Assembly: GCA_048941285.1 (NCBI GenBank)
Contig: JBHLNS010000002.1
Span: 91,030-155,029, forward strand
Source: Promethearchaeota archaeon
GTDB lineage: Archaea; Asgardarchaeota; Lokiarchaeia; Sigyniarchaeales; SOKP01
DNA: 64,000 bases
Direction: 5' to 3'
In this document: positions 7,116 through 56,806 of the stretch, piece by piece
How the letters are laid out: each line of letters opens with the position of its first letter
Position numbering within the stretch: the first letter of the stretch is position 1
Program-made: the position numbers and the translations under genes
Notes under the pieces: generated by a model
Database searches by the model: none
The model's input: only the letters and a program-made list of their open reading frames with translations
Told to the model about the DNA's origin: nothing

Positions 7116-8072
7116 TTAAAATTTCTTCGATAAAGTTTTTAATTTTTTATCCAATCCAGTTACTTCTTCGTCCCATTTGTGTAGAATGATCTCAATTTTT
7201 GGAATAATAGGTTCTTTTTCTTTATATTCCAAATAATCCATAAAATCTTTAATATTCTCAATCCTAACATAAGTTTCCGCAACAAATTTTCGAATTTCTT
7301 GAGCTTGCGATTTAAGAACTTCAGGAATCCTTTTCTTTTCGCCACGATGAGTTAGTGTGGTCAAATATTCTTCTGTTCCCATTAATAAAGAATTAAATTC
7401 GTTTATTTTATCATTAACAAATTTTTCATAAGTTTCTGGAATATTACTTCTTGGAAAAAAACTTGTAATATCTATAATAAATTTCTGAGTTGAACTAATC
7501 AATTGTTCCATACTCTCGTATCCCTCTATTTTATAATCCACTGAGTGATAGGAGGCTTCGAGACCTCGATTAATATCGTCCAGTCTAAATATTTTAAAAC
7601 CTGGATCGTTTTTCAGTTGTTTATCTGGATCTCCCTTTTTATCTGCTACTTCAATCTGGCGTACTAACCTAGTTGGGTTAAAAACAAGTGAAATTGCCAG
7701 AGGATTATTCTGTTGGTAAGAAAGTGTAGTACGGATGTCAATATGACTCATCATTACTTTAAAACCTGGATGTGAATGCCACCATCCGATAACAAATTCA
7801 GGAGGATCCTTCGAAAATGCTAAATCATCTATTATATACAAGGCTTCATAATCTTCGTCTGCCCATTTATATTGATCAATTACAGCGTCTTTATCTAACT
7901 CTTGATGCATGATTGGGAAAGCTTCAGAAATAAAAACATCTTCACCATCATTTCGGCCTGTGAAAATTCCACTAACTTCTAACCATTCATCCTTCGGAAT
8001 ACGTGCGTTAGCATATCTAACAGCCGCAGCTACTATCGTTAAATAAACTTTTTTAGGGATTATAACAGTCAT
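7116..8072 (-). CDS. MPN+/JAMM metalloprotease with helical C-terminal extension
   Basis: LEVSG ... GWWHSHPGFKVMMSHID (E-HxH-x7-S-x2-D intact). Confidence 0.9.
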   Translation of the reverse strand: MTVIIPKKVYLTIVAAAVRYANARIPKDEWLEVSGIFTGRNDGEDVFISEAFPIMHQELDKDAVIDQYKWADEDYEALYIIDDLAFSKDPPEFVIGWWHSHPGFKVMMSHIDIRTTLSYQQNNPLAISLVFNPTRLVRQIEVADKKGDPDKQLKNDPGFKIFRLDDINRGLEASYHSVDYKIEGYESMEQLISSTQKFIIDITSFFPRSNIPETYEKFVNDKINEFNSLLMGTEEYLTTLTHRGEKKRIPEVLKSQAQEIRKFVAETYVRIENIKDFMDYLEYKEKEPIIPKIEIILHKWDEEVTGLDKKLKTLSKKF

Positions 8073-16869: not shown

Positions 16870-19767
16870 TTATTCAATTATTTCCATAGGTTTACCGTGA
16901 TGCTCTGGTAAGGGTTGAACTCCACAGGAGGCCCCCATCCAACAGACAAGTTCGTTTCCTTCTTTATGCATTGGTTTTCCACAATGCATTGGAAGTTCTT
17001 GTTCCATTCCACATTCTGAACATTTCAATTTTCCCATTTTTTTATCATCCTCTTTTTTTTGTATAATTTGATTTTCTTTTTCTTTTATCTTATTATTTGA
17101 AGAACTTTTCATTTGCATTAATTTTGGATCCATAGCATCATAATTCTTATATCTTTCAGGATCCGTTTTGAAGTGCGCTTCACAATTAGAACTACAAAAA
17201 TGATAAATAATATTTTTATATTCGTATTCAATAGCCCGTCTTGGGTCAATTTCCATACCACATACCGGATCTCTTACTTTTTTTTGAGAAAGTAATAATC
17301 TTTCTTCTTCAATTTGCTGCGGTGTTTTTGGTTCATATCTTTTCAAGAACAAAGCATTTGTAACTACTGAAACTGAACTTGTAGCCATAAAAACAGCTGC
17401 TAAGTAAGGGGGTAAAAATAATCCGGTTACAGCGTATAAAAGCCCAGCAGCGATTGGGATTCCAATAAGATTATAAATAAAAGCCCAGAATAGATTTGTT
17501 ATCATTTTTTTATAAGTTTTTTTAGATAAATTTATTGCAGATACAACATTTCTCACATCTCCTCTCATAAGGACAATGTCTGCAGTTTCAATAGCAACAT
17601 CAGTCCCAGAACCTATTGCAATTCCTACGTCAGCTTGAGCTAATGCTGGCGCATCGTTTATTCCATCACCTACCATTCCAACAATTTTATGGTCTCCAGA
17701 TTCTTGCAATTTTTGTATAGTCAAAGCTTTTTCATTTGGTAACACTTCTGCTAAAATGTGTTGATCATCTATTTTTAATTGTTTTCCAATAGTAAGTGCA
17801 GTTTGCTTATTATCACCTGTTAACATGAAAATATCTAATCCCATCTCTCGTAATTTATCTAAAGCATAAGGAGTCTGTTCTTTTATTTTATCAGAAATAC
17901 CTATTATTCCCCTGATTTCATTATCAATGGCTATTAAAACTGTTGTAATACCTTGTTTTTGATATTCATTAAATTTGATCTCATAATCTCCAATCTCTAT
18001 ATTTTGATCAAACATTAATTTATCGTTCCCTATCAAAACTGTTTTTCGCTTAATAATAGTTTTGATACCTTTACCTGGAATTGCATCAAATTCAGTGGGG
18101 GATTCAAGAGATAATCCTCTTTGATTTGCTTCCTCGATAATTGCTCTTCCAAGAGGGTGTTCAGAGCCCATTTCCGCACTACCTGCATAAATTAGTAATT
18201 CATTTTCATCATAGCCCGAATTGTTCATTTGTTGTTCAGTAAAAATTGCTGAAACTTTAGGTTTGCCTATAGTTAAAGTACCTGTTTTATCAAAGACGAT
18301 AGTATTAATAGTATTAATAGACTCCAGAGAATCACCTCCTTTTATAAGAAGCCCATTTTCTGCACCTTTTCCTGTACCAACCATTACAGCAGTTGGAATT
18401 GCTAATCCTAAAGCACAAGGACATGCTATGACTACTACAGATGTAAATACTAACAAGGATGTTTCAAGTCTAGCTGCTTGAAGTACTGGGAAAATCTGAG
18501 TTCCAATAAAGTACCAGTAAAGAAACGAGCTAATCGCAATGATAATCACTAATGGTACAAAATAATTACTTACTTTATCAGCTAACTGTTGCTTAGCCGC
18601 TTTCCGACTTTGAGCTTGCTTTACGAAATCTATTATTTGAAATAGTAATGTATCTTTACCTATTTTTTCAGTTTCCATATGAAACAATCCAGTTTGATTA
18701 ACTGTTGCTCCAATTACTTTACTATCAACTTCCTTCTTAACATATTTACTTTCTCCTGTTATCATTGCCTCATCTACTTTGGTTTTTCCTTTAATTACTC
18801 TTCCATCAACAGGAATTTTTTCACCAGGTCTTACTACCAATATATCTCCAACTTCAATTTCTTCGATTGGAATTTCTATTTCTTCACCATCTTTTAAGAT
18901 GGTTGCTGTTTTTGGTTGTAAACCTATTAACTTTTTTATGGCTTCAGATGTTTGACCTTTAGTTTTGTGTTCAAGATATTTTCCGACTAGTAGAAATGTA
19001 ATAATCATACTCATTGCTTCATAGAAGGTTTTCCCTGGAATAAAGAACGTAGTTAAAATAGAATAAATAAATGCTGTAGTAGTACCTAATGCAATTAAAA
19101 CATCCATATTTGTTGACTTATTTTTCAAAGATCGATAAGCTCCAATTAAGAAAAATGACCCTGAAATCAAATAATTAGCCGTTGCTAAAAAAAATAGAAT
19201 TAAATTCCTCTCAAAAGAATCTATTACAAACCAGCTTATAGGAGCAATAATTAATGAGAATATTAATGAAATAATCATTATTCGTAATCTGTATCTCATT
19301 TCTTTTTTATGTTTAATAATTTCCATATCCATTACTCCAGCAGATTTTTCAATATTATGCCCTAATTGCTTAATTTTTGAATAGAGCCCATTCTCATCAA
19401 TTAGCAATTCATTGAATTCAATAAACATCTTAGAAGCTTTATAATTACCTCTGATCTCATAAATTCCCTTAATGGTTTTTATTTTTGTAATGAAATCTTC
19501 AAATTCACTTTCCGAAAGCTCTTCTACAACTTTTATATCAATTTTTGCAAGTGATGCTTTATAGCCTAGATCTCGAATTGCTTCTTTAAATTTAGTAAAA
19601 TCGACTGTCTTTGGATTGTAGTCAACTGTTGCTTCTTCATTAGCAAAATTAACTACTGCTGTATTAACCCCCCCAAGACTATTTAATTTAGTTTCAATCT
19701 TTAATGCACAATTAGCACATGTCATTCCACCTAATTTTATATTCACCTTTTCTTTAGTTTCTGTCAC
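16870..19767 (-). CDS. copA: Cu(I)-translocating P1B ATPase with HMA, YHS/TRASH and an extra Cys/His C-terminal domain
   Basis: [38 protein letters not shown]; DPVCGM...FCSSNC. Confidence 0.95.
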
Positions 19768-21798: not shown

Positions 21799-22179
21799 TT
21801 ACTTCTTTTTTTCCTTATATTTTTTAATCGCATCTTGCAATCCATCAGCAGCTAGATTACTACAATGCAATTTTATGGGAGGTAGTCCATCTAAAGAATC
21901 AGCAACATCCTGTCGAGTGATTTTGAGAGCCTCATCTAATGTTTTACCTTTAGCTAATTCTGTTACCATTGATGATGTGGCAATAGCAGCTGCACATCCA
22001 AAAGTCTGAAAAGATATATCATCAATAATCTCTTTTCCATTCTTTTCTTTCACTTTAATATAGATATACATTAAATCTCCGCATACAGGATTTCCTACCT
22101 CTCCTACAGAATCTGCATCTTTCATTTCACCCATATTCCTCGGATTTCTAAAGTGTTCCATTACTTTTTCAGAGTATAC
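21799..22179 (-). CDS. iscU: Fe-S scaffold IscU/NifU-N (MisU)
   Basis: YSEKVMEHFRNPRN, NPVCGD, FGC, LPPIKLHCS; start extended to the putative GTA at 22179 (first ATG at 22161). Confidence 0.92.
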   Translation of the reverse strand, partial: VYSEKVMEHFRNPRNMGEMKDADSVGEVGNPVCGDLMYIYIKVKEKNGKEIIDDISFQTFGCAAAIATSSMVTELAKGKTLDEALKITRQDVADSLDGLPPIKLHCSNLAADGLQDAIKKYKEKKK

Positions 22180-24991: not shown

Positions 24992-25402
24992 TTACTTGTA
25001 TTTATTAAGTTTAACTTTTTTTAGTGCTGTATTTAAGTCTTCAATAGAATAACCTCTATCTTTTAAACCCTTCATAACAGTACCAAAATTGAGACCTTTA
25101 AGAATATCATTTAAATTTTCTTTCGAGATTTCAATTCCTAATTCAAGTGGTTGAGGTTTTAATGTGTAAATTATTCTTGTTATCTCTTCAAATCTAGGTA
25201 ATAAGAATGTTTCTATTCTATAACTAAATTTTGGAGATACCATTGGAGCTACCGATTGTAAATCTATGCATTCAGCAAGTGCATTAATTTGCTTTATACT
25301 CAATGTTACAATTCCGTATTCTTTTCCTTTTTTTTTAAAATTGTTTTTTATAAAAATCACATTATTTTCAAAAATAGCATATTCATATTCATTTCCATCC
25401 AT
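24992..25402 (-). CDS. Hypothetical protein
   Basis: 136-aa ORF with a G-rich SD-like upstream sequence. Confidence 0.6.
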   Translation of the reverse strand: MDGNEYEYAIFENNVIFIKNNFKKKGKEYGIVTLSIKQINALAECIDLQSVAPMVSPKFSYRIETFLLPRFEEITRIIYTLKPQPLELGIEISKENLNDILKGLNFGTVMKGLKDRGYSIEDLNTALKKVKLNKYK

Positions 25403-25444: not shown

Positions 25445-26104
25445 TTATTCAACTAATTTTATTAATTTAATAAGATCTATTGGCCCATTGACATTGATTA
25501 AGCTTACTAAATTTTTATCTAATTTTTGAATAGAGTTTTCTACAGAGACATAATTTACGTTCCAATTCTTATCTATAAAATTAATCAATCCATAATTTTC
25601 AGTAATTAAAATTTCTTTCGCTTTTTGAAACCCCTTTTCAACGGGATAAATCGCGAAAAAAGGTTCTAAGAAACCATTTTTCCATCTAGGAATACAGCAA
25701 TCAAATCCTATTGATTCTTTAATCATTAGATTAATTACTTCTGGATTAATTAAAGGCATATCACAGGATAATAAAAATATTTTTTCAAAACCCAAATTAT
25801 TGAGTTCTTTAAACCCAGAATAAATTCCTAACATAGGTTTATAGATTTTGGAATGACCAAAAATTTCTCTATCATCTACAATGAAATTAACATCTTTAGG
25901 AAAATCTATTTGTTTTTTATAATTAAAGATTTGTTCATCAGAATGAGCAACTAAATAGATATCTTGATCAAATTTTGATAAAATGTCTAATTGATGTAAA
26001 ATTAATGGTTTTCCATAAAATTCAATAATTGGTTTTTCAATACCAAAACGAGTACTTTTTCCACCAATTAAAATGAGAATTGCTAAATCTTTTTGACTAT
26101 TCAT
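25445..26104 (-). CDS. mobA: Molybdenum cofactor guanylyltransferase
   Basis: ILIGGKSTRFG, SCDMP, EPFFAIY, NVN. Confidence 0.88.
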   Translation of the reverse strand: MNSQKDLAILILIGGKSTRFGIEKPIIEFYGKPLILHQLDILSKFDQDIYLVAHSDEQIFNYKKQIDFPKDVNFIVDDREIFGHSKIYKPMLGIYSGFKELNNLGFEKIFLLSCDMPLINPEVINLMIKESIGFDCCIPRWKNGFLEPFFAIYPVEKGFQKAKEILITENYGLINFIDKNWNVNYVSVENSIQKLDKNLVSLINVNGPIDLIKLIKLVE

Positions 26105-26246
26105 TCTTCTATTTTCTGTTTTAATTAATCTGAAGATCTGTTTTTATTTTTCTATGCTTTTATGTGTTTTATATAAAAGATGAAAAGAATTTCTAAAAAA
26201 AACTATTTAGATTTTTGTACGAAAGCTCTGAATTTTTTATTCACAT

Positions 26247-26384
26247 TTAATATTCCTCGTCGTCTGCGTCCCAATCGTCGTCGTCATCTTCGTCCCATTC
26301 CTCGTCGTCATCTTCGTCCCAATCATCATCATCGTCAACATCCTCATCCCAATCCTCATCTTCATCTTTCTTTTTTCCAGTCAT
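26247..26384 (-). CDS. 45-aa hyperacidic Asp/Glu-Trp repeat micro-protein (absent from the ORF track)
   Basis: MTGKKKDEDEDWDEDVDDDDDWDEDDDEEWDEDDDDDWDADDEEY; GGAG SD; synonymous GAT/GAC variation between repeats. Confidence 0.75.
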   Translation of the reverse strand: MTGKKKDEDEDWDEDVDDDDDWDEDDDEEWDEDDDDDWDADDEEY

Positions 26385-27211
26385 TTTATATCTCCATTAT
26401 TTTTTATTTATTCTACATTAAAATAATCTTATGTTTTCAATTACGATTAAAAACTTATTATATATTTAAATGTTTCTAATTTTAATAACAATATTTAAAA
26501 TAAAAAAGCTTAATTGATATTTCAATATAATAAAACTTATTAATGGGTACTTATATTGCTTTTAACCATTGATTTTTATCATATTTAAAATTATGCTACT
26601 CATTTTAAATAAAAATAAGGTTTAATCCACGATAAAAATCTTATGGTTTATACCTTTTTTAAAACCTTTAATAAATCTGAGAATATTTTTACTATTAGTT
26701 AGAAAGCAAAACTCTATTTTTTTTTATATAAAATTCAATTCCTTTTAAAAATAATGGTAAAATTTTTAGCAGAAATCACTCAATATTGTAAAATAAGTTG
26801 AGAAAGAAGAAATTATGTTAAATCAAATTCACATTTATTTCCTTATGATTAAAACTTAAATTATGCCTAGGATTAATGGATTATATTTCTAATGAAAAGA
26901 GAATTAGTGATAATAAATTTAGTTTTACCAATCATTATTAGATAGAAATATTTTTAAATTAGCTTAATCTTATTTAACTTCAAATATAACCTTTTAATTA
27001 AATTATATATAATCAAATTTAAACAACATATCTCAAGGATCCGTTAAAACTGTAGATGATATATAATATTAACAGTAATATATTAAGAAATCTTAATCCT
27101 AATATTAATCTTTTCCGAGATTGTTTAAAAGTCTTTAGCTTTTTTTTAAGTTATTTAAGGTTTATTTTATTCATTTTTTATCAAAATTACAAACTTATTT
27201 AATTAATAATA

Positions 27212-29143
27212 ATGACAACCCAAAATAGAAGTACAAATATTAAAAAAAAAAATTTTGAAAGTAAAGAAAAAAATACACCAAAATGTTTAGGTCCTGTTCC
27301 AGACTTAGAGAACTATGTTAAGAAGGATTGGTGGAAAAGAATATTTAACGCTTATTATTTAAAAACAGATGGTGATGTTGTCGACGATCAAAAAATCACT
27401 CAATTTGAAGCAAAATATTTTACTAAAGTTATGAACTTTCAACAAGATCATCATATTCTTGACCTTTGCTGTGGTCAAGGAAGACATTCAATAGAATTAG
27501 CTAATAAAGGTTTTAAACATATATTTGGACTAGATCGTTCAAGGTTTTTGATTCAAAAAGCTAAATCAGATGCTAAAAAAAAAGGTGTGATTTGTAGATT
27601 TCGTGAGGGTGATGCAAGAAAACTACCGTATAGTCCTGATTCATTTGATTCTGTTATGATTTTAGGCAATAGTTTTGGATATTTTGAATCTATAAATGAT
27701 GATGTTATGGTTCTTAAAGAAGTTTTTCGTGTTTTAAAACCTTGGGGAAATATATTAATTGATATTACAGATGGAGAATATATTAAAAAAAACTTTCAGC
27801 AACGTTCATGGGAATGGATTGATAAGAATCTTTTCGTGTGTAGGGAAAGATCTTTATCTTTAGACAAACAAAAATTAATTTCAAGAGAGGTAATAACTCA
27901 TGTGAATAAAGGAGTATTAGTTGATCAATTTTATTCTGAAAGACTGTACTCTAAAAATGGCATTTCAAAATTATTAAAAAAAGCAGGTTTTAGTGATATA
28001 ACCTTTCATGACACAATCACTCCTGAATCTCAGAGGGATCAAGATTTAGGTATGATGGAAAAAAGAATTATTATTAGTGCTAAGGTTAAAAAAGAATGGA
28101 CATTGGTTAAAAAGAAGGATATAAAAGTCGGAAGAAACATAGTTGTAGTTTTTGGAGACCCTAATAAACCAGATTTACTTAAACCTTTAAAAAAATTTGA
28201 TGATGATGATTTCTATACAATAAATCAATTAAAAGCGGCATTAAAGGAATTAAATGAGTATAATTTTACATATATTGATAACCACACTACTCTTCTTCAA
28301 GATTTACGAAATTTAAAGGGAAAAACTGATTTTATATTTAATTTATGTGATGAAGGTTATTTAAATGATGCTAGAAAGGAATTACACATACCTGCATTAT
28401 TAGAAATTTTAAATATTCCTTTTACTGGATCCGGCCCTCAATGTCTCGCTTTTTGTTATGATAAATCGTTAGTAAGAGGTATTGCAAAAGAATTAGGCAT
28501 TCCGGTTCCTGAAGCTATTTATATTAAGCCTGAAGATAAAATTATTGATTTACCTTTATATTTTCCAGCAATTGTGAAGCCTAATTTTGGGGATTCAAGC
28601 TTTGGGATCACTCAGAATAGTGTAGTCTCCAATGGAGAAGAATTATTAAGTGCAATTTCAGAAATCCGTGAAAAATTTGGATATGATAAACCAATTTTAA
28701 TTGAACAATTTCTTACTGGAAAGGATCTAAGCCTTGGAATTATTGGAAATCCACCTGATAATTACTTTATTCTTCCTATAATTGAAGAAGACTACTCAAA
28801 TCTACCTCCAGAATTACCAAAAATATGTGGTTATGAAGCAAAATGGTTGCCAGATTCTCCATATTGGAATATTAAATCAATTCCAGCAAGTCTTCCGCAA
28901 AATATAATTGAAATAATAGAAACTTGTTCTGTTAAACTATTTGAAAGATTAGAGTGCCAAGATTATGCTCGTTTTGATTGGCGTTTGGATACTAATGGAA
29001 ATCCAAAGCTTCTAGAAGTTAATCCCAATCCCGGTTGGTGTTGGGATGGTCATCTCGCAAAAATGTGTAATTTTGCTGAGTTGCCATATAAAGATATGCT
29101 TAAAAAAATATTAGAAGTGGCAGCGAATAGAATTGGATTCTGA
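27212..29143 (+). CDS. Class I SAM methyltransferase fused to a Ddl-like ATP-grasp ligase
   Basis: ILDLCCGQGRH, GDAR; VKPNFGDSSFGI, EQFLTG, RFDWR, LEVNPNPG. Confidence 0.9.
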   Translation: MTTQNRSTNIKKKNFESKEKNTPKCLGPVPDLENYVKKDWWKRIFNAYYLKTDGDVVDDQKITQFEAKYFTKVMNFQQDHHILDLCCGQGRHSIELANKGFKHIFGLDRSRFLIQKAKSDAKKKGVICRFREGDARKLPYSPDSFDSVMILGNSFGYFESINDDVMVLKEVFRVLKPWGNILIDITDGEYIKKNFQQRSWEWIDKNLFVCRERSLSLDKQKLISREVITHVNKGVLVDQFYSERLYSKNGISKLLKKAGFSDITFHDTITPESQRDQDLGMMEKRIIISAKVKKEWTLVKKKDIKVGRNIVVVFGDPNKPDLLKPLKKFDDDDFYTINQLKAALKELNEYNFTYIDNHTTLLQDLRNLKGKTDFIFNLCDEGYLNDARKELHIPALLEILNIPFTGSGPQCLAFCYDKSLVRGIAKELGIPVPEAIYIKPEDKIIDLPLYFPAIVKPNFGDSSFGITQNSVVSNGEELLSAISEIREKFGYDKPILIEQFLTGKDLSLGIIGNPPDNYFILPIIEEDYSNLPPELPKICGYEAKWLPDSPYWNIKSIPASLPQNIIEIIETCSVKLFERLECQDYARFDWRLDTNGNPKLLEVNPNPGWCWDGHLAKMCNFAELPYKDMLKKILEVAANRIGF

Positions 29144-29210
29144 CATTAAGATTTTTAACAGTGAGTATTTTTATTCCAATTAATTTGAGCGTTAGAAAAT
29201 TCCATTAAGA

Positions 29211-30320
29211 TTATATGAAAAAATCTAACAAGAGTAGTATAAATTCCATAATAAAGACAACGCTAAGCAGAATTTCAACATAAAGTAAAAATTTTTCATT
29301 AATATTTGTTTGCGAGACATTATAAATGTTTTCTAACGTTTCAAGCCGATGTCTTATACTTTCGCTCCATTGCTTTAATTGAAATAATTCCGATAAATGA
29401 GTATATATTTCAGCTAAAAAGTAATCTCCAATTAGTTTTGACACATTTTCAATATTTTCTAGTAAAAATAACAAATCATATCTTAATCGAATTAGCCGTC
29501 CAACTTTTCTTTTGAATCGTCTTAATAAACTCCGACTTTTAAAATAAATTTTGCGTATATCTTCTTCTGCTATTGCTAATCTTCTATCTAGTAATTTGTC
29601 TAGTGTACGTAATTCGAGTAATTGGTAATTAGCAATCTCGACTACATATAAAATATCTTCATAATCATAATTAGGATCAATTATTAGCCCTCTATCAAAA
29701 TCAAATATTATTAGGTCATTTTTCAAATATGAAAAAGGCTTTTTAAGTGTTTTATTAATTTGTTCCTTACTGAGGTTTAGTTTTGGATTTTCTCCCATAA
29801 GTAGAGCTGAAAAGTAACCTTTTTCACTTTCAATCAATTCTTTGGGGTTAGTTAAACTATCAGTAATACAATATAACGTATATTTTTCATATTCAGACTC
29901 ACCAAATATGAATCCTTCTTCTCCTATATAATCTCTTATTTGGTTAAAGACTTTATTCTGATGGAATTTCAAAAAATTATTTATTTGAAATTCTCCATCA
30001 GAAGTCTTAAATTTAATTTTTCTAAGGGTGTGTAATTCATTAAATGAGAAATCTCGAAAAGGTAGTCTGGCAATTAAAGAGATCACACCATCTGAATATA
30101 ATTTAACATGTAGAGTTAAATCTTCAACATTTTTTATTTCACAGGATATTTTCTGAGTGACTTCTAATAGTAAAGGTACGGGAAAGTCTACATAGGAAGG
30201 GGTATCTCGAGTTTTAATAATCCTTTTATCTTGAATTGCAGGGATAATTTTCATTACATCTTGTAAATTAATGCTACGTCCTACATCAGTCATTCGGAAA
30301 AAAATTGCTTCGCCATTCAA
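29211..30320 (-). CDS. RMD1/DUF155-like protein with C-terminal TM
   Basis: QLLELRTLD, KLIGDYFLAEIY, W...I..RLE, hydrophobic C-terminal helix. Confidence 0.6.
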   Translation of the reverse strand: MNGEAIFFRMTDVGRSINLQDVMKIIPAIQDKRIIKTRDTPSYVDFPVPLLLEVTQKISCEIKNVEDLTLHVKLYSDGVISLIARLPFRDFSFNELHTLRKIKFKTSDGEFQINNFLKFHQNKVFNQIRDYIGEEGFIFGESEYEKYTLYCITDSLTNPKELIESEKGYFSALLMGENPKLNLSKEQINKTLKKPFSYLKNDLIIFDFDRGLIIDPNYDYEDILYVVEIANYQLLELRTLDKLLDRRLAIAEEDIRKIYFKSRSLLRRFKRKVGRLIRLRYDLLFLLENIENVSKLIGDYFLAEIYTHLSELFQLKQWSESIRHRLETLENIYNVSQTNINEKFLLYVEILLSVVFIMEFILLLLDFFI

Positions 30321-32562: not shown

Positions 32563-33801
32563 TTAATGGGTGTGGCTTTTACCATTCTCATCGAAAATGT
32601 ATTTAACACCTTTTTTGAGGGGGGATATCTTCCTCAATCTTTCAATTATAGTTGGTAACTTTGTCAAAAAATAATCGATATCATGTTCTGTAGTAAACCT
32701 TCCTAAAGTAACTCTTAAAGAACCATGAGCCTCTTCAGGCTTTAATCCGATCGCTAAAAGTACATGGCTAGGATCCAGCGATTTGGATGAACAAGCTGAA
32801 CCAGTTGATGTAGCAATTCCTTCTGCATCCAAATCCAATACAATGGATTCTCCTTCTATATACCTAAAACCTAAATTCACATTATTGGGAAGTCTTTGTG
32901 TAGGATGCCCGTTTAAGTAACTATCCTCAATATTTTCTGTTACCCATTTAATTATCCTATCTCTTAGTTTTATTTGTCTCAAAATTTCTTTCTCCATTTC
33001 ATCTTTAGCTAATTCTACGGCTTTAGCAAAACCTGCAATCCCTGGAACATTTACTGTGCTTGGCCTCATATCCCTTTCATGACCCCCACCATACATAATA
33101 GGTTCAATAAATTTACCCCAACCTTCTTTTACTCCTTTATTTCGAATGTACAGCATACCTACACCTTTCGGTCCATAAAGCTTATGAGCAGAGGCAGATA
33201 ACAGATCAATATTCATCTCTTTTACATCTATTGGAACTTTTCCAAAAGCTTGTACTGCATCTGTGTGAAAAATAACCCCATACTTTTTTGTAATCTCCCC
33301 AATTTCTTTTATTGGTTGAATAGTACCAATCTCATTATTAGCAAACATGACACTTATTAGAATAGTTTTTTTTGTAATTGCATTTTCTAAGTCGTTAATG
33401 CTAATAACACCATATTTATCAACCGGTAGGAAGGTAACCGTAAACCCTCTTTTTTCTAATTCCTTGAAGGGATTTTCTACAGCATGATGTTCAATTACAG
33501 TCGTAATAATATGGTTACCCTTCTCTTTGTTTTTTGATGTCACCCCAAAAATTGCTAGGTTATCAGCTTCTGTACCCGAGGAGGTAAAAAAAATATCATC
33601 TCTATTCGCATTAATTAAAGAGGCAATAGTTTCACGCGATTTTAATAATATTTGACCCGCTTTTTGTCCTATAGAATGTAAACTGGAGGAATTTCCATAG
33701 GTCTCTTTAAAATGCTTATTTACTTCTGCAATCACCTTAGGATCCATTGGAGTAGTCGCAGCGTTATCAAGGTAAACATATTTTATATCGTTCATAATCA
33801 A
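32563..33801 (-). CDS. iscS: Cysteine desulfurase (NifS/IscS type, MisS)
   Basis: YLDNAATT, HTDAVQ, SAHKLYGPKG, STGSACSS. Confidence 0.95.
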   Translation of the reverse strand: MIMNDIKYVYLDNAATTPMDPKVIAEVNKHFKETYGNSSSLHSIGQKAGQILLKSRETIASLINANRDDIFFTSSGTEADNLAIFGVTSKNKEKGNHIITTVIEHHAVENPFKELEKRGFTVTFLPVDKYGVISINDLENAITKKTILISVMFANNEIGTIQPIKEIGEITKKYGVIFHTDAVQAFGKVPIDVKEMNIDLLSASAHKLYGPKGVGMLYIRNKGVKEGWGKFIEPIMYGGGHERDMRPSTVNVPGIAGFAKAVELAKDEMEKEILRQIKLRDRIIKWVTENIEDSYLNGHPTQRLPNNVNLGFRYIEGESIVLDLDAEGIATSTGSACSSKSLDPSHVLLAIGLKPEEAHGSLRVTLGRFTTEHDIDYFLTKLPTIIERLRKISPLKKGVKYIFDENGKSHTH

Positions 33802-55465: not shown

Positions 55466-56806
55466 TTAGGCACTTAAATTTTCTAATAAAACCGCGATTC
55501 CTTGTCCGCCACCAACGCAAGCGTTGGCAATACCATATTTACCATTTTTCTGCTTCAAAATGCGTGCTAGGGTTCCAATTAAACGACACATAGTAGCACC
55601 TAAAGGATGACCAATTGCGGTGGAGCCCCCCATTACATTTACCTTTTCTTCGGGGATATTCAGTTTATCCATACAATTTAATGCAACAATACAAAATGCC
55701 TCATTAATTTCCCAGAAATCAATATCATCAGCTTGAAGTCCAGCATGTTTTAATGCCATTTTAGAAGCAGGAACAGGACCACGCCCCATTACTGTAGGAT
55801 CTACTCCTGCAAAGCCTATTGATACAATTTTCGCTAATGGATCAATGCCTCGTTTCTCAGCTTCTTTAGCATCCATCATTACACATGCAGTAGCCCCAGC
55901 ATTCAAAGGAGAAGCATTTCCCGCTGTAATTACTCCATCCTTAGAACCGACAAATTCTTCATATCCCTTTCGACCAAGTTCTTGTCCAGAAACTGTTTTT
56001 TTGACAAAATGAGGTTTCGAAACAGGTCTTAATCCCGCAACAGACTCAAGAGTTGATTTCCTAGCAGCCATATCCTTATCAATCATTAAAGATTCTTCTA
56101 CATTTCCTTCCACATGTCCTTGGATTGGAATAATTTCTCCTCCATTGACACCAGAAGTGAAGAAATTTTCTTCTTGGCTCTTAATAGTTAAATTATGCGC
56201 TCTTACCCCAAGCTTATCCATGTCTTCTTTTGTGAATCTTGGAATTTCCTCTTCGAATAATTTTTGAGCTGTAGATAACATATCTGTTGCTATTAATAAA
56301 TCATATTCACCTTTTCGTGCAAATTTTTCAACATAGAATTGTGAATCTTTACTAGCAATTGAGAGATTAGGTTTAATCCATTGGTTTGTAATACCCATAG
56401 GAACTCGCGTTAAATGTTCAAGTCCTGTCGATAACACACACTTACTATAACCCGTTGCTATCTCAAGAAAACCTAAGTGAAATCCTGCTCCTGCTGATCC
56501 ACATTGTTTGTCTAAAAATACACTAGAAGTGCGTATATCCATACCTGCAAACCAAGTAGGTAACTTTCCTCCATAAGTCCAATGTTCTCCTACTCCAAAA
56601 GCGCTTCCAATTGTAAATTCATCAATATCCTTCTTTTCGATGCCCTTATTTGCCAATTTGCTGTCAAACATCTTCTGTAGTAATAGAGCAAGAAGTTCAT
56701 CTCCCCGGATTTCACCAAAAACATCTCTTTCTGGCTGACCAGGTCTCGATCGTGAGAATGCAGTGCGTGCGTAATCAACCAACCATACTTCATTTAATTC
56801 TACCAT
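55466..56806 (-). CDS. Acetyl-CoA C-acyltransferase (thiolase)
   Basis: KQCGS, NEAF, GHPLGAT, CVGGGQG. Confidence 0.93.
   Translation of the reverse strand: MVELNEVWLVDYARTAFSRSRPGQPERDVFGEIRGDELLALLLQKMFDSKLANKGIEKKDIDEFTIGSAFGVGEHWTYGGKLPTWFAGMDIRTSSVFLDKQCGSAGAGFHLGFLEIATGYSKCVLSTGLEHLTRVPMGITNQWIKPNLSIASKDSQFYVEKFARKGEYDLLIATDMLSTAQKLFEEEIPRFTKEDMDKLGVRAHNLTIKSQEENFFTSGVNGGEIIPIQGHVEGNVEESLMIDKDMAARKSTLESVAGLRPVSKPHFVKKTVSGQELGRKGYEEFVGSKDGVITAGNASPLNAGATACVMMDAKEAEKRGIDPLAKIVSIGFAGVDPTVMGRGPVPASKMALKHAGLQADDIDFWEINEAFCIVALNCMDKLNIPEEKVNVMGGSTAIGHPLGATMCRLIGTLARILKQKNGKYGIANACVGGGQGIAVLLENLSA

Follow-up and report, generated by a model that had tools for sequence, protein, structure and literature searches.

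Small acidic proteins and acidic protein tails are known from several well-studied systems. DSS1/Sem1, a disordered acidic eukaryotic protein of 70-90 amino acids with conserved Trp, belongs to the proteasome lid and also works with BRCA2 and TREX-2; it docks in basic grooves and has been reported to mimic DNA. The C-terminal region of the RNA polymerase delta subunit is said to mimic nucleic acid. Acidic tails with an aromatic or hydrophobic end are found in SSB, T7 gp2.5, alpha-tubulin (EEY) and Hsp70 (EEVD), where the end residue docks in a pocket of the partner. LysW combines zinc-ribbon Cys pairs with a C-terminal Glu acceptor and a neighbouring ligase of the RimK/LysX type, and Pup has a C-terminal GGQ or GGE and a ligase of the PafA/Dop type. 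Here we describe an open reading frame (ORF) for a hyperacidic Trp-repeat peptide of 45 amino acids at 26247..26384 (minus strand) of a 64,000-nucleotide stretch from a Promethearchaeota archaeon (assembly GCA_048941285.1, contig JBHLNS010000002.1, positions 91,030 to 155,029), hereafter the window. Comparative evidence indicates that the ORF is a genuine protein-coding gene, conserved, repeat-built and under purifying selection, which had been missed by the gene caller in this Asgard archaeon.

The micro-protein gene and its conservation

The coding sequence runs from an ATG at 26384..26382 to a TAA at 26249..26247 and translates to MTGKKKDEDEDWDEDVDDDDDWDEDDDEEWDEDDDDDWDADDEEY. Reading the sequence again bore out the make-up given in a preliminary description drawn from the DNA letters: 32 of the 45 residues are acidic (23 Asp and 9 Glu; net charge -29), the four Trp stand at positions 12, 22, 30 and 38 (spacing 10, 8 and 8), six residues precede the acidic run, Cys is absent and the C-terminus is EEY. 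Such a composition suggests an intrinsically disordered polyanion. The [D/E]n-W units are encoded by a 24-nt (8-codon) tandem repeat at 26257..26324 (minus strand; period 24, 2.8 copies, 88% matches), and the number of 8-residue units changes in frame, with 2.8 copies in the window against 5.8 in the L005 ortholog. Local G+C over the gene reaches 0.44 in a genome of 29.7% G+C. Among 86,104 genome frames of at least 20 amino acids this ORF alone contains the motif [DE]W[DE][DE] at least twice, and only five stop-to-stop frames in the 3.55-Mb genome reach at least 17 D/E per 25 residues; given this uniqueness among the frames of the genome, the ORF is therefore not a chance frame.

Profile and pattern searches followed by inspection of the loci yielded 34 syntenic orthologs, which belong to a single Asgard (Promethearchaeota) family and are spread over four of its genera. 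DNA patterns, which also yield chance matches, were adopted because profile searching is insensitive to a low-complexity peptide: the first profile search gave no candidate in genome G006 despite two copies there. The frame is open in all 34 orthologs, over 33-69 codons when counted from the first in-frame start, so that the true start may lie further downstream. The acidic core of these proteins is 46% Asp, 28% Glu, 8.6% Trp, 4.9% Tyr and 3.4% Phe, with about 9% left for all other residues, and each ortholog carries two to five Trp (mode three). The commonest spacing between aromatic residues is six, and 201 of 224 spacings, taken between aromatics or between successive Trp, are of 12 residues or fewer. 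At least two Lys or Arg stand within the eight residues ahead of the acidic core in 25 of the 34. As for the terminal motif, which the preliminary description had emphasised in the form EEY, the literal tripeptide ends only 6 of 34 orthologs; what is kept is an aromatic last residue, present in 26 of 34 (Tyr in 20, Phe in 6).

Selection on the protein had been proposed from its mixed GAT and GAC codons, and both the observation and the proposal held. The Asp and Glu codons comprise 12 GAT, 11 GAC, 5 GAA and 4 GAG. The GAC share of 48% (11/23) falls at the 99.7th percentile among 1,901 long ORFs (genome mean 13%), and the GAG share of 4/9 compares with 21% for the genome. Codon bias for high expression was rejected as the source of this usage because two thermosome genes have a GAC share of only 11-16%; it is more likely that codon mixing limits perfect repetition of the DNA. 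The ratio of nonsynonymous to synonymous differences (pN/pS) was 0.28 in the 10 sequences of a subgroup that aligns without repeat ambiguity, and which omits the more repetitive subtype of the window peptide. Recomputed over six frames with nine sequences, it was 0.26 with no stops in the acidic frame, and 0.32-1.45 with 3-68 stops in the other five.

The surrounding DNA suggests that the gene has its own promoter. A BRE/TATA-like element at 26461..26477 (minus strand), consisting of AGAAACA and TTTAAATATA, lies about 86 nt before the ATG and is near-invariant across seven aligned orthologs. It is followed by a Shine-Dalgarno-like GGAG at 26392..26395 (minus strand), 7 nt before the ATG, whose GAG core is invariant in the seven and whose first G is variable; the G006 ortholog has a displaced purine-rich stretch in place of this site. 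In the same alignment the 150 nt upstream of the ORF are better conserved than the 3' flank. The leader between the TATA-like box and the GGAG (26396..26460, minus strand) is conserved above the level of the synonymous sites of the ORF and might hold a regulatory element. A T8 run at 26195..26202 (minus strand), 45 nt past the stop, reads as a possible archaeal terminator. A structured RNA was considered and rejected, as neither the peptide transcript nor its leader has an Rfam match and the transcript folds no better than shuffled sequences (z = +0.92). It is this absence of an Rfam match and of a fold signal, together with the orthologs and the purifying selection in one frame, that leads us to regard the ORF as protein-coding. 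The leader had also been likened to that of an MPN gene in the window. That gene (7116..8072, minus strand) does encode a 318-amino-acid protein with an intact JAMM/MPN+ motif (HSHP...S..D), and the likeness is present, but it amounts to GGAG with an A-rich spacer, for which 0.21 matches are expected per window and at least one was found in 19 of 100 shuffles.

The view that the peptide is unannotated needs to be qualified. The exact peptide is absent from a collection of 15 billion proteins, in which a few relatives appear as 'hypothetical protein', but an identical entry exists in the ESM Atlas, where its neighbours are only unnamed clusters with scores (0.83-0.86) below the lead threshold. 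Neither Pfam nor NCBIfam returned anything for the window peptide; 26 aligned family members gave weak, scattered Pfam matches (best E 0.32), and a word-indexed homolog search with the peptide produced 21 candidates, none at E <=0.001. A profile of the 26 members recovered nine proteins of 44-114 amino acids, all of the same family, from 1.84 billion representatives. The present analysis defines a family of such genes, of which 34 syntenic members were collected, against only nine detectable representatives in that set.

Acid-Trp repeats in other proteins

The window peptide is part of a multi-paralog set characterised by a Lys head, [D/E]n-Trp units and an aromatic tail. Paralogous micro-ORFs lie after NifS, in the gap between a cyclophilin and a HEAT-repeat gene, beside a thioredoxin-like gene and beside an RHH-like gene; several of them are convergent with the next gene and are therefore not leader ORFs. 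When 400 genomes of the phylum were scanned with a DNA pattern for DWDED[DE], 57 contained it; the reversed control pattern gave five matches in four genomes. Similar sequences also form the ends of larger proteins. The PCNA of another Asgard family (loci L018-L028; identity confirmed by Pfam for L019) has a C-terminal acid-Trp tail, and an Hsp70-like protein of a sister genus (L037, L038) ends in VDVDWDEDE(E), where eukaryotic Hsp70 ends in EEVD. Further afield, a scan of all species genomes gave at least 119 stretches of the form WDED...WDED. They include tails of many bacterial proteins, among which Obg, ScpB, DUF6763 and PRiA4-like proteins were identified, and a Micrarchaeota (DPANN) ORF of about 37-46 codons (L149:4988-5128, plus strand) that has the same layout as the window peptide, with a Lys-rich head and then D/E runs interrupted by Trp. 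Acid-Trp repeats recur as a disordered module across both archaea and bacteria, probably by convergence.

Three other ORFs of the window genome, on contigs C94 (55273..56049), C41 (6111..6566) and C68, carry acidic stretches. One has a C-terminus that reads as TBP-like behind a long acidic, Phe-rich N-terminal stretch. Another likewise has a long acidic, Phe-rich N-terminal stretch, and its C-terminal part resembles a ubiquitin-like domain by eye. The remaining one encodes a small protein with Cys pairs (zinc-ribbon-like), whose tail is a poly-D/E run with DDYD at its end.

A possible polyanionic ligand and its alternatives

We put at roughly 40% the probability that the free peptide, a polyanion resembling nucleic acid, serves as ligand or decoy for the basic surfaces of proteins and that its Trp and Lys residues perhaps also aid its translation. 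On this explanation, for which both the binding mode and the class of partner are inferred, the peptide would act stoichiometrically as a soluble, nucleic-acid-like molecule: its carboxylates would pair with Lys/Arg-rich surfaces, the regularly spaced Trp and Tyr would anchor the chain through cation-pi or hydrophobic contacts, and basic partners, typically DNA- or RNA-binding proteins, would be shielded, competed off or chaperoned. The peptide would then be a free-standing, trans-acting and multivalent version of the acid-Trp tails on the PCNA and Hsp70 of related lineages. The Lys head and a bulky Trp every 6-10 residues probably also keep the extreme D/E run translatable, a role suggested because acidic nascent chains destabilise ribosomes. 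A study of E. coli reports that N-terminal D/E-rich nascent chains abort translation and that tunnel occupancy and bulky residues counteract abortion at D/E runs (bioRxiv 10.1101/2021.02.02.429294). Should a partner be found, the peptide could become a minimal tractable model of how disordered polyanions with aromatic anchors recognise basic surfaces, and could show how cells translate polyanionic peptides.

Several points weigh against this explanation. The likeness to DNA-mimic and acidic-tail proteins is one of composition, not of homology. The pN/pS value comes from a subgroup without the window's own, more repetitive subtype. The conserved ligase gene next door, described below, and a neighbourhood rich in genes for iron-sulphur (Fe-S) clusters and metals fit other roles equally well. 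Finally, if Trp serves translatability only, the anchor part of the mechanism falls.

Among the alternatives, a non-functional frame opened by expansion of a GAY/GAR/TGG tandem repeat is scarcely credible. The 24-nt repeat is real and antisense frames are also open in the window, but the orthologs in four genera conserve the start, the GGAG site and the promoter, purifying selection is confined to one frame, and codon mixing preserves the amino acids as the DNA diverges. The ORF might instead be a cis-acting regulatory leader or sensor of ribosome destabilisation, in which cation-dependent abortion would set the expression of the downstream MobA-like and p136 genes and the peptide itself would be functionless. 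It lies 142 nt upstream of the MobA-like gene on the same strand, its leader is conserved, and its D/E run begins at residue 7, within the position class reported as most abortive in the E. coli study (bioRxiv 10.1101/2021.02.02.429294). We nevertheless judge such a role improbable in view of the conserved Trp positions and aromatic C-terminus, the pN/pS of 0.26 over the full length, the T8 run after the stop, the paralogs that are convergent with the next gene and the different downstream gene in other genera. More improbable again is the proposal of the preliminary description, in which a eukaryote-like array of short linear motifs would address cytoskeletal partners; these would be Arp2/3, kinesin light chain and CAP-Gly or EB-type readers. 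Acid-Trp units and a terminal EEY are indeed present, the host is an Asgard archaeon, and the Hsp70 of the sister genus ends in an acid-Trp tail; in eukaryotes, Hsp70 tails are read by TPR clamps. The resemblance to the A motif of WASP/WAVE is compositional (an acidic stretch with Trp near the C-terminus): the WH2 and connector elements are missing ahead of it, where only six residues precede the acidic run, and the best match to ARPC4, taken as the marker of the Arp2/3 complex (E 0.2, 12 bits), is below the family cut-off. The W-acidic motif of kinesin light chain has Leu or Met two residues before Trp, with D/E flanks, whereas the window peptide has D or E, and no hydrophobic residue, at that position before all four Trp. 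As for a reader of EEY, which only 6 of 34 orthologs retain, the genome (94% complete) has no CAP-Gly match at E up to 1, and all matches to the TTL family are weak ones of the generic ATP-grasp kind. With neither CAP-Gly nor Arp2/3 found, the cytoskeletal reading is unsupported. Moreover, because WDED...WDED repeats are common in bacterial disordered tails among the matches listed, the motif alone does not point to cytoskeletal readers; to our knowledge, bacteria with such tails have no eukaryote-type cytoskeletal partners. Acid-Trp repeats are thus not a eukaryotic cytoskeletal signature, which corrects the earlier over-reading. The wider idea of a multivalent acidic-aromatic peptide, a nucleic-acid mimic or a cation binder survives among the live options.

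The remaining alternatives draw on the neighbouring genes. Divergent from the peptide gene and 828 nt away lies a gene at 27212..29143 (plus strand) for a 643-amino-acid protein, a class I S-adenosylmethionine (SAM) methyltransferase (PF13847/PF13649) fused to a Ddl-like ATP-grasp ligase (PF07478), which makes it a candidate partner. The peptide could be a substrate, carrier or tag of this enzyme: its C-terminal or side-chain carboxylates would be converted to an acyl-phosphate and then joined to an amine, extended or attached to a target, modification of the Lys head or carboxylates would fall to the fused methyltransferase, and, where a paralog of the proteasome-activating AAA ATPase PAN comes after the ligase, the product could pass to that ATPase. 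The logic resembles that of LysW/LysX, RimK/S6, tubulin-tyrosine ligase and Pup/PafA/Mpa. Of 30 ortholog loci of the ligase, 22 have an acid-Trp peptide upstream of it; among the eight others, four offer less than 700 bp of sequence on that side. The arrangement differs in two other genera, where the peptide stands 92-128 bp upstream of the ligase on the same strand. The methyltransferase part has a net charge of +11. At 19 of 30 loci of the genus the next gene after the ligase, within about 40 nt, is a third PAN paralog that ends in I-F-L or I-F-V (L075, L078-L084, L086, L087, L089, L090, L092, L095, L097-L101). Three high-completeness genomes without the ligase retain NifS-MobA-beta-CASP and lack both the peptide and p136 beside MobA. 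Against such a role, the whole block of p369, ligase, peptide, MobA, p136 and beta-CASP is syntenic family-wide, so that the adjacency of peptide and ligase is partly inherited. Strict co-occurrence of the two was not upheld. In G143 and G130, which have the ligase and p136, neither pattern nor profile detected a peptide; in G119 the ligase is accompanied by neither a p136 match nor a peptide. G095 has the peptide beside MobA and the ligase on a different contig, and G079 keeps a peptide after NifS with no ligase found. In addition, one of the two peptide copies of G015 stays with MobA away from the ligase, paralogous acid-Trp peptides elsewhere have no ligase nearby, and the ATP-grasp domain is of the Ddl type rather than the RimK/LysX or TTL type. 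The window genome itself has no ligase-linked PAN (nothing at 29143..29211), its two other PAN copies being on contigs C24 and C69. The coupling is suggestive but loose, and we consider a role with the ligase unlikely. A complex prediction from the ligase and peptide alignments scored 0.00 and 0.00 in runs without controls, and is evidence neither way. A further role, that of a cation or metal buffer or Fe-S assembly accessory, would rest on 32 carboxylates that could bind Fe, Mg, Ca or polyamines, or on docking to a basic patch of cysteine desulfurase, for which small acidic IscX and frataxin provide a precedent. Fe-S and metal genes are abundant around the locus: a P-type metal ATPase (16870..19767), an IscU-like gene (21799..22161), a NifS cysteine desulfurase (32563..33801) and a SufC-like ATPase (from 36146, the metal/Fe-S gene region extending to 36943; assigned from its N-terminal sequence only, with no family search) all lie within 10 kb of the peptide gene, in addition to the MobA-like gene. 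In relatives (L002, L040, L048, L114) a paralogous peptide is found on the strand of NifS, 167-535 nt past that gene, and some paralogs contain D-x-D-x-D-G-like stretches. Such a role is nonetheless unlikely, since a pure chelator needs neither the conserved Trp nor the aromatic end, the window peptide is not adjacent to NifS, other paralogs adjoin unrelated genes (cyclophilin/HEAT, thioredoxin-like, RHH-like), and no homology to IscX or frataxin was seen in Pfam, NCBIfam or the PDB profile search.

A bolder proposal, to which we give little credence, would place the acid-Trp micro-proteins, as modifier or adaptor, in an Asgard module, so far undescribed, for protein tagging or delivery to the proteasome. 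The ligase would activate a carboxylate of the peptide and couple it to client amines, or remodel the peptide, and the dedicated third PAN would read the polyanionic tag; in the subclade of the window the PAN would have been lost and the peptide become more repetitive. A SET-domain protein (PF00856, E 9e-10; L036:2466-2939, minus strand) comes after the methyltransferase/ATP-grasp gene in one genus, where the acidic peptide is directly upstream.

On the other side of the peptide gene, the MobA-like nucleotidyltransferase (25445..26104, minus strand; 219 amino acids) serves here as syntenic context only. It is followed, ahead of a beta-CASP nuclease gene, by p136 (24992..25402, minus strand), a conserved 136-amino-acid protein without a Pfam family. 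The AlphaFold model of p136 is confident (pLDDT 90.7, pTM 0.83), and because Foldseek found nothing in the PDB at E <=0.001, its predicted fold may be undescribed; this has no bearing on the peptide.

Comparison with described systems

LysW/LysX, RimK/S6 and Pup/PafA/Mpa have in common with the present locus that the gene for a small acidic peptide adjoins that of a ligase which activates carboxylates at the expense of ATP; in many relatives the peptide gene also has a proteasomal AAA ATPase paralog nearby. The archaeal locus differs from these systems in that the peptide has no zinc ribbon, no EDWGE and no GGQ or GGE end, and the neighbouring ligase is of the Ddl type, fused to a methyltransferase and only loosely coupled to the peptide in its phyletic distribution. 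A LysW-type carrier was rejected because the peptide lacks Cys and has a C-terminal Tyr, and the neighbour matches PF07478 with no RimK-type match listed. Pup was rejected because the peptide ends in EEY and the ligase next door is an ATP-grasp enzyme; PafA/Dop were not searched for. Were the tagging module proposed above to exist, its function would parallel that of Pup/PafA/Mpa and that of DSS1 in the proteasome lid, but its parts would be unrelated to theirs.

Proteins that dock on the proteasome through an HbYX tail end in a hydrophobic residue, a penultimate Tyr and any last residue, a form that the E-E-Y end of the window peptide does not have. A second hyperacidic frame of the genome, of 62 codons with one Trp (contig C64, about 56245..56431, minus strand), ends in I-Y-S, which we take to be an HbYX-like proteasome-docking end. 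This frame is divergent from an RHH-like gene of 190 amino acids, and its orthologs in L041 and L049 share the I-Y-S end.

Closer in physical character is DSS1/Sem1, which resembles the archaeal peptide in being small, free-standing, acidic and disordered with few conserved aromatics, the disorder of the archaeal peptide being judged from its composition. The archaeal peptide is shorter, far more acidic and repeat-built, has a Lys head and shows no detectable homology. Identity with DSS1/SEM1 was rejected on the DSS1 family PF05160: matches at E up to 10 occurred in 14 of the 54 genomes of the genus, none of them at a peptide locus or reaching the cut-off, and neither the window peptide nor the 26 family members gave a match. 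Among the papers listed in abstract-level literature searches, none linked Asgard archaea to DSS1-like or W-acidic small proteins. The single neighbour in the PDB search with the 26-member profile was the delta subunit of bacterial RNA polymerase, at whose C-terminus a Lys tract precedes a D/E polyanion (6zfb_D, E 1.5, non-significant); delta differs in being bacterial, with a folded N-terminal domain and without periodic Trp. The peptide family is undescribed, but its physico-chemical kind, that of small hyperacidic disordered proteins, is known. Compared with the acidic tails of SSB, gp2.5, tubulin and Hsp70, the archaeal peptide can be described as a tail that has become a whole protein, and a multivalent one.

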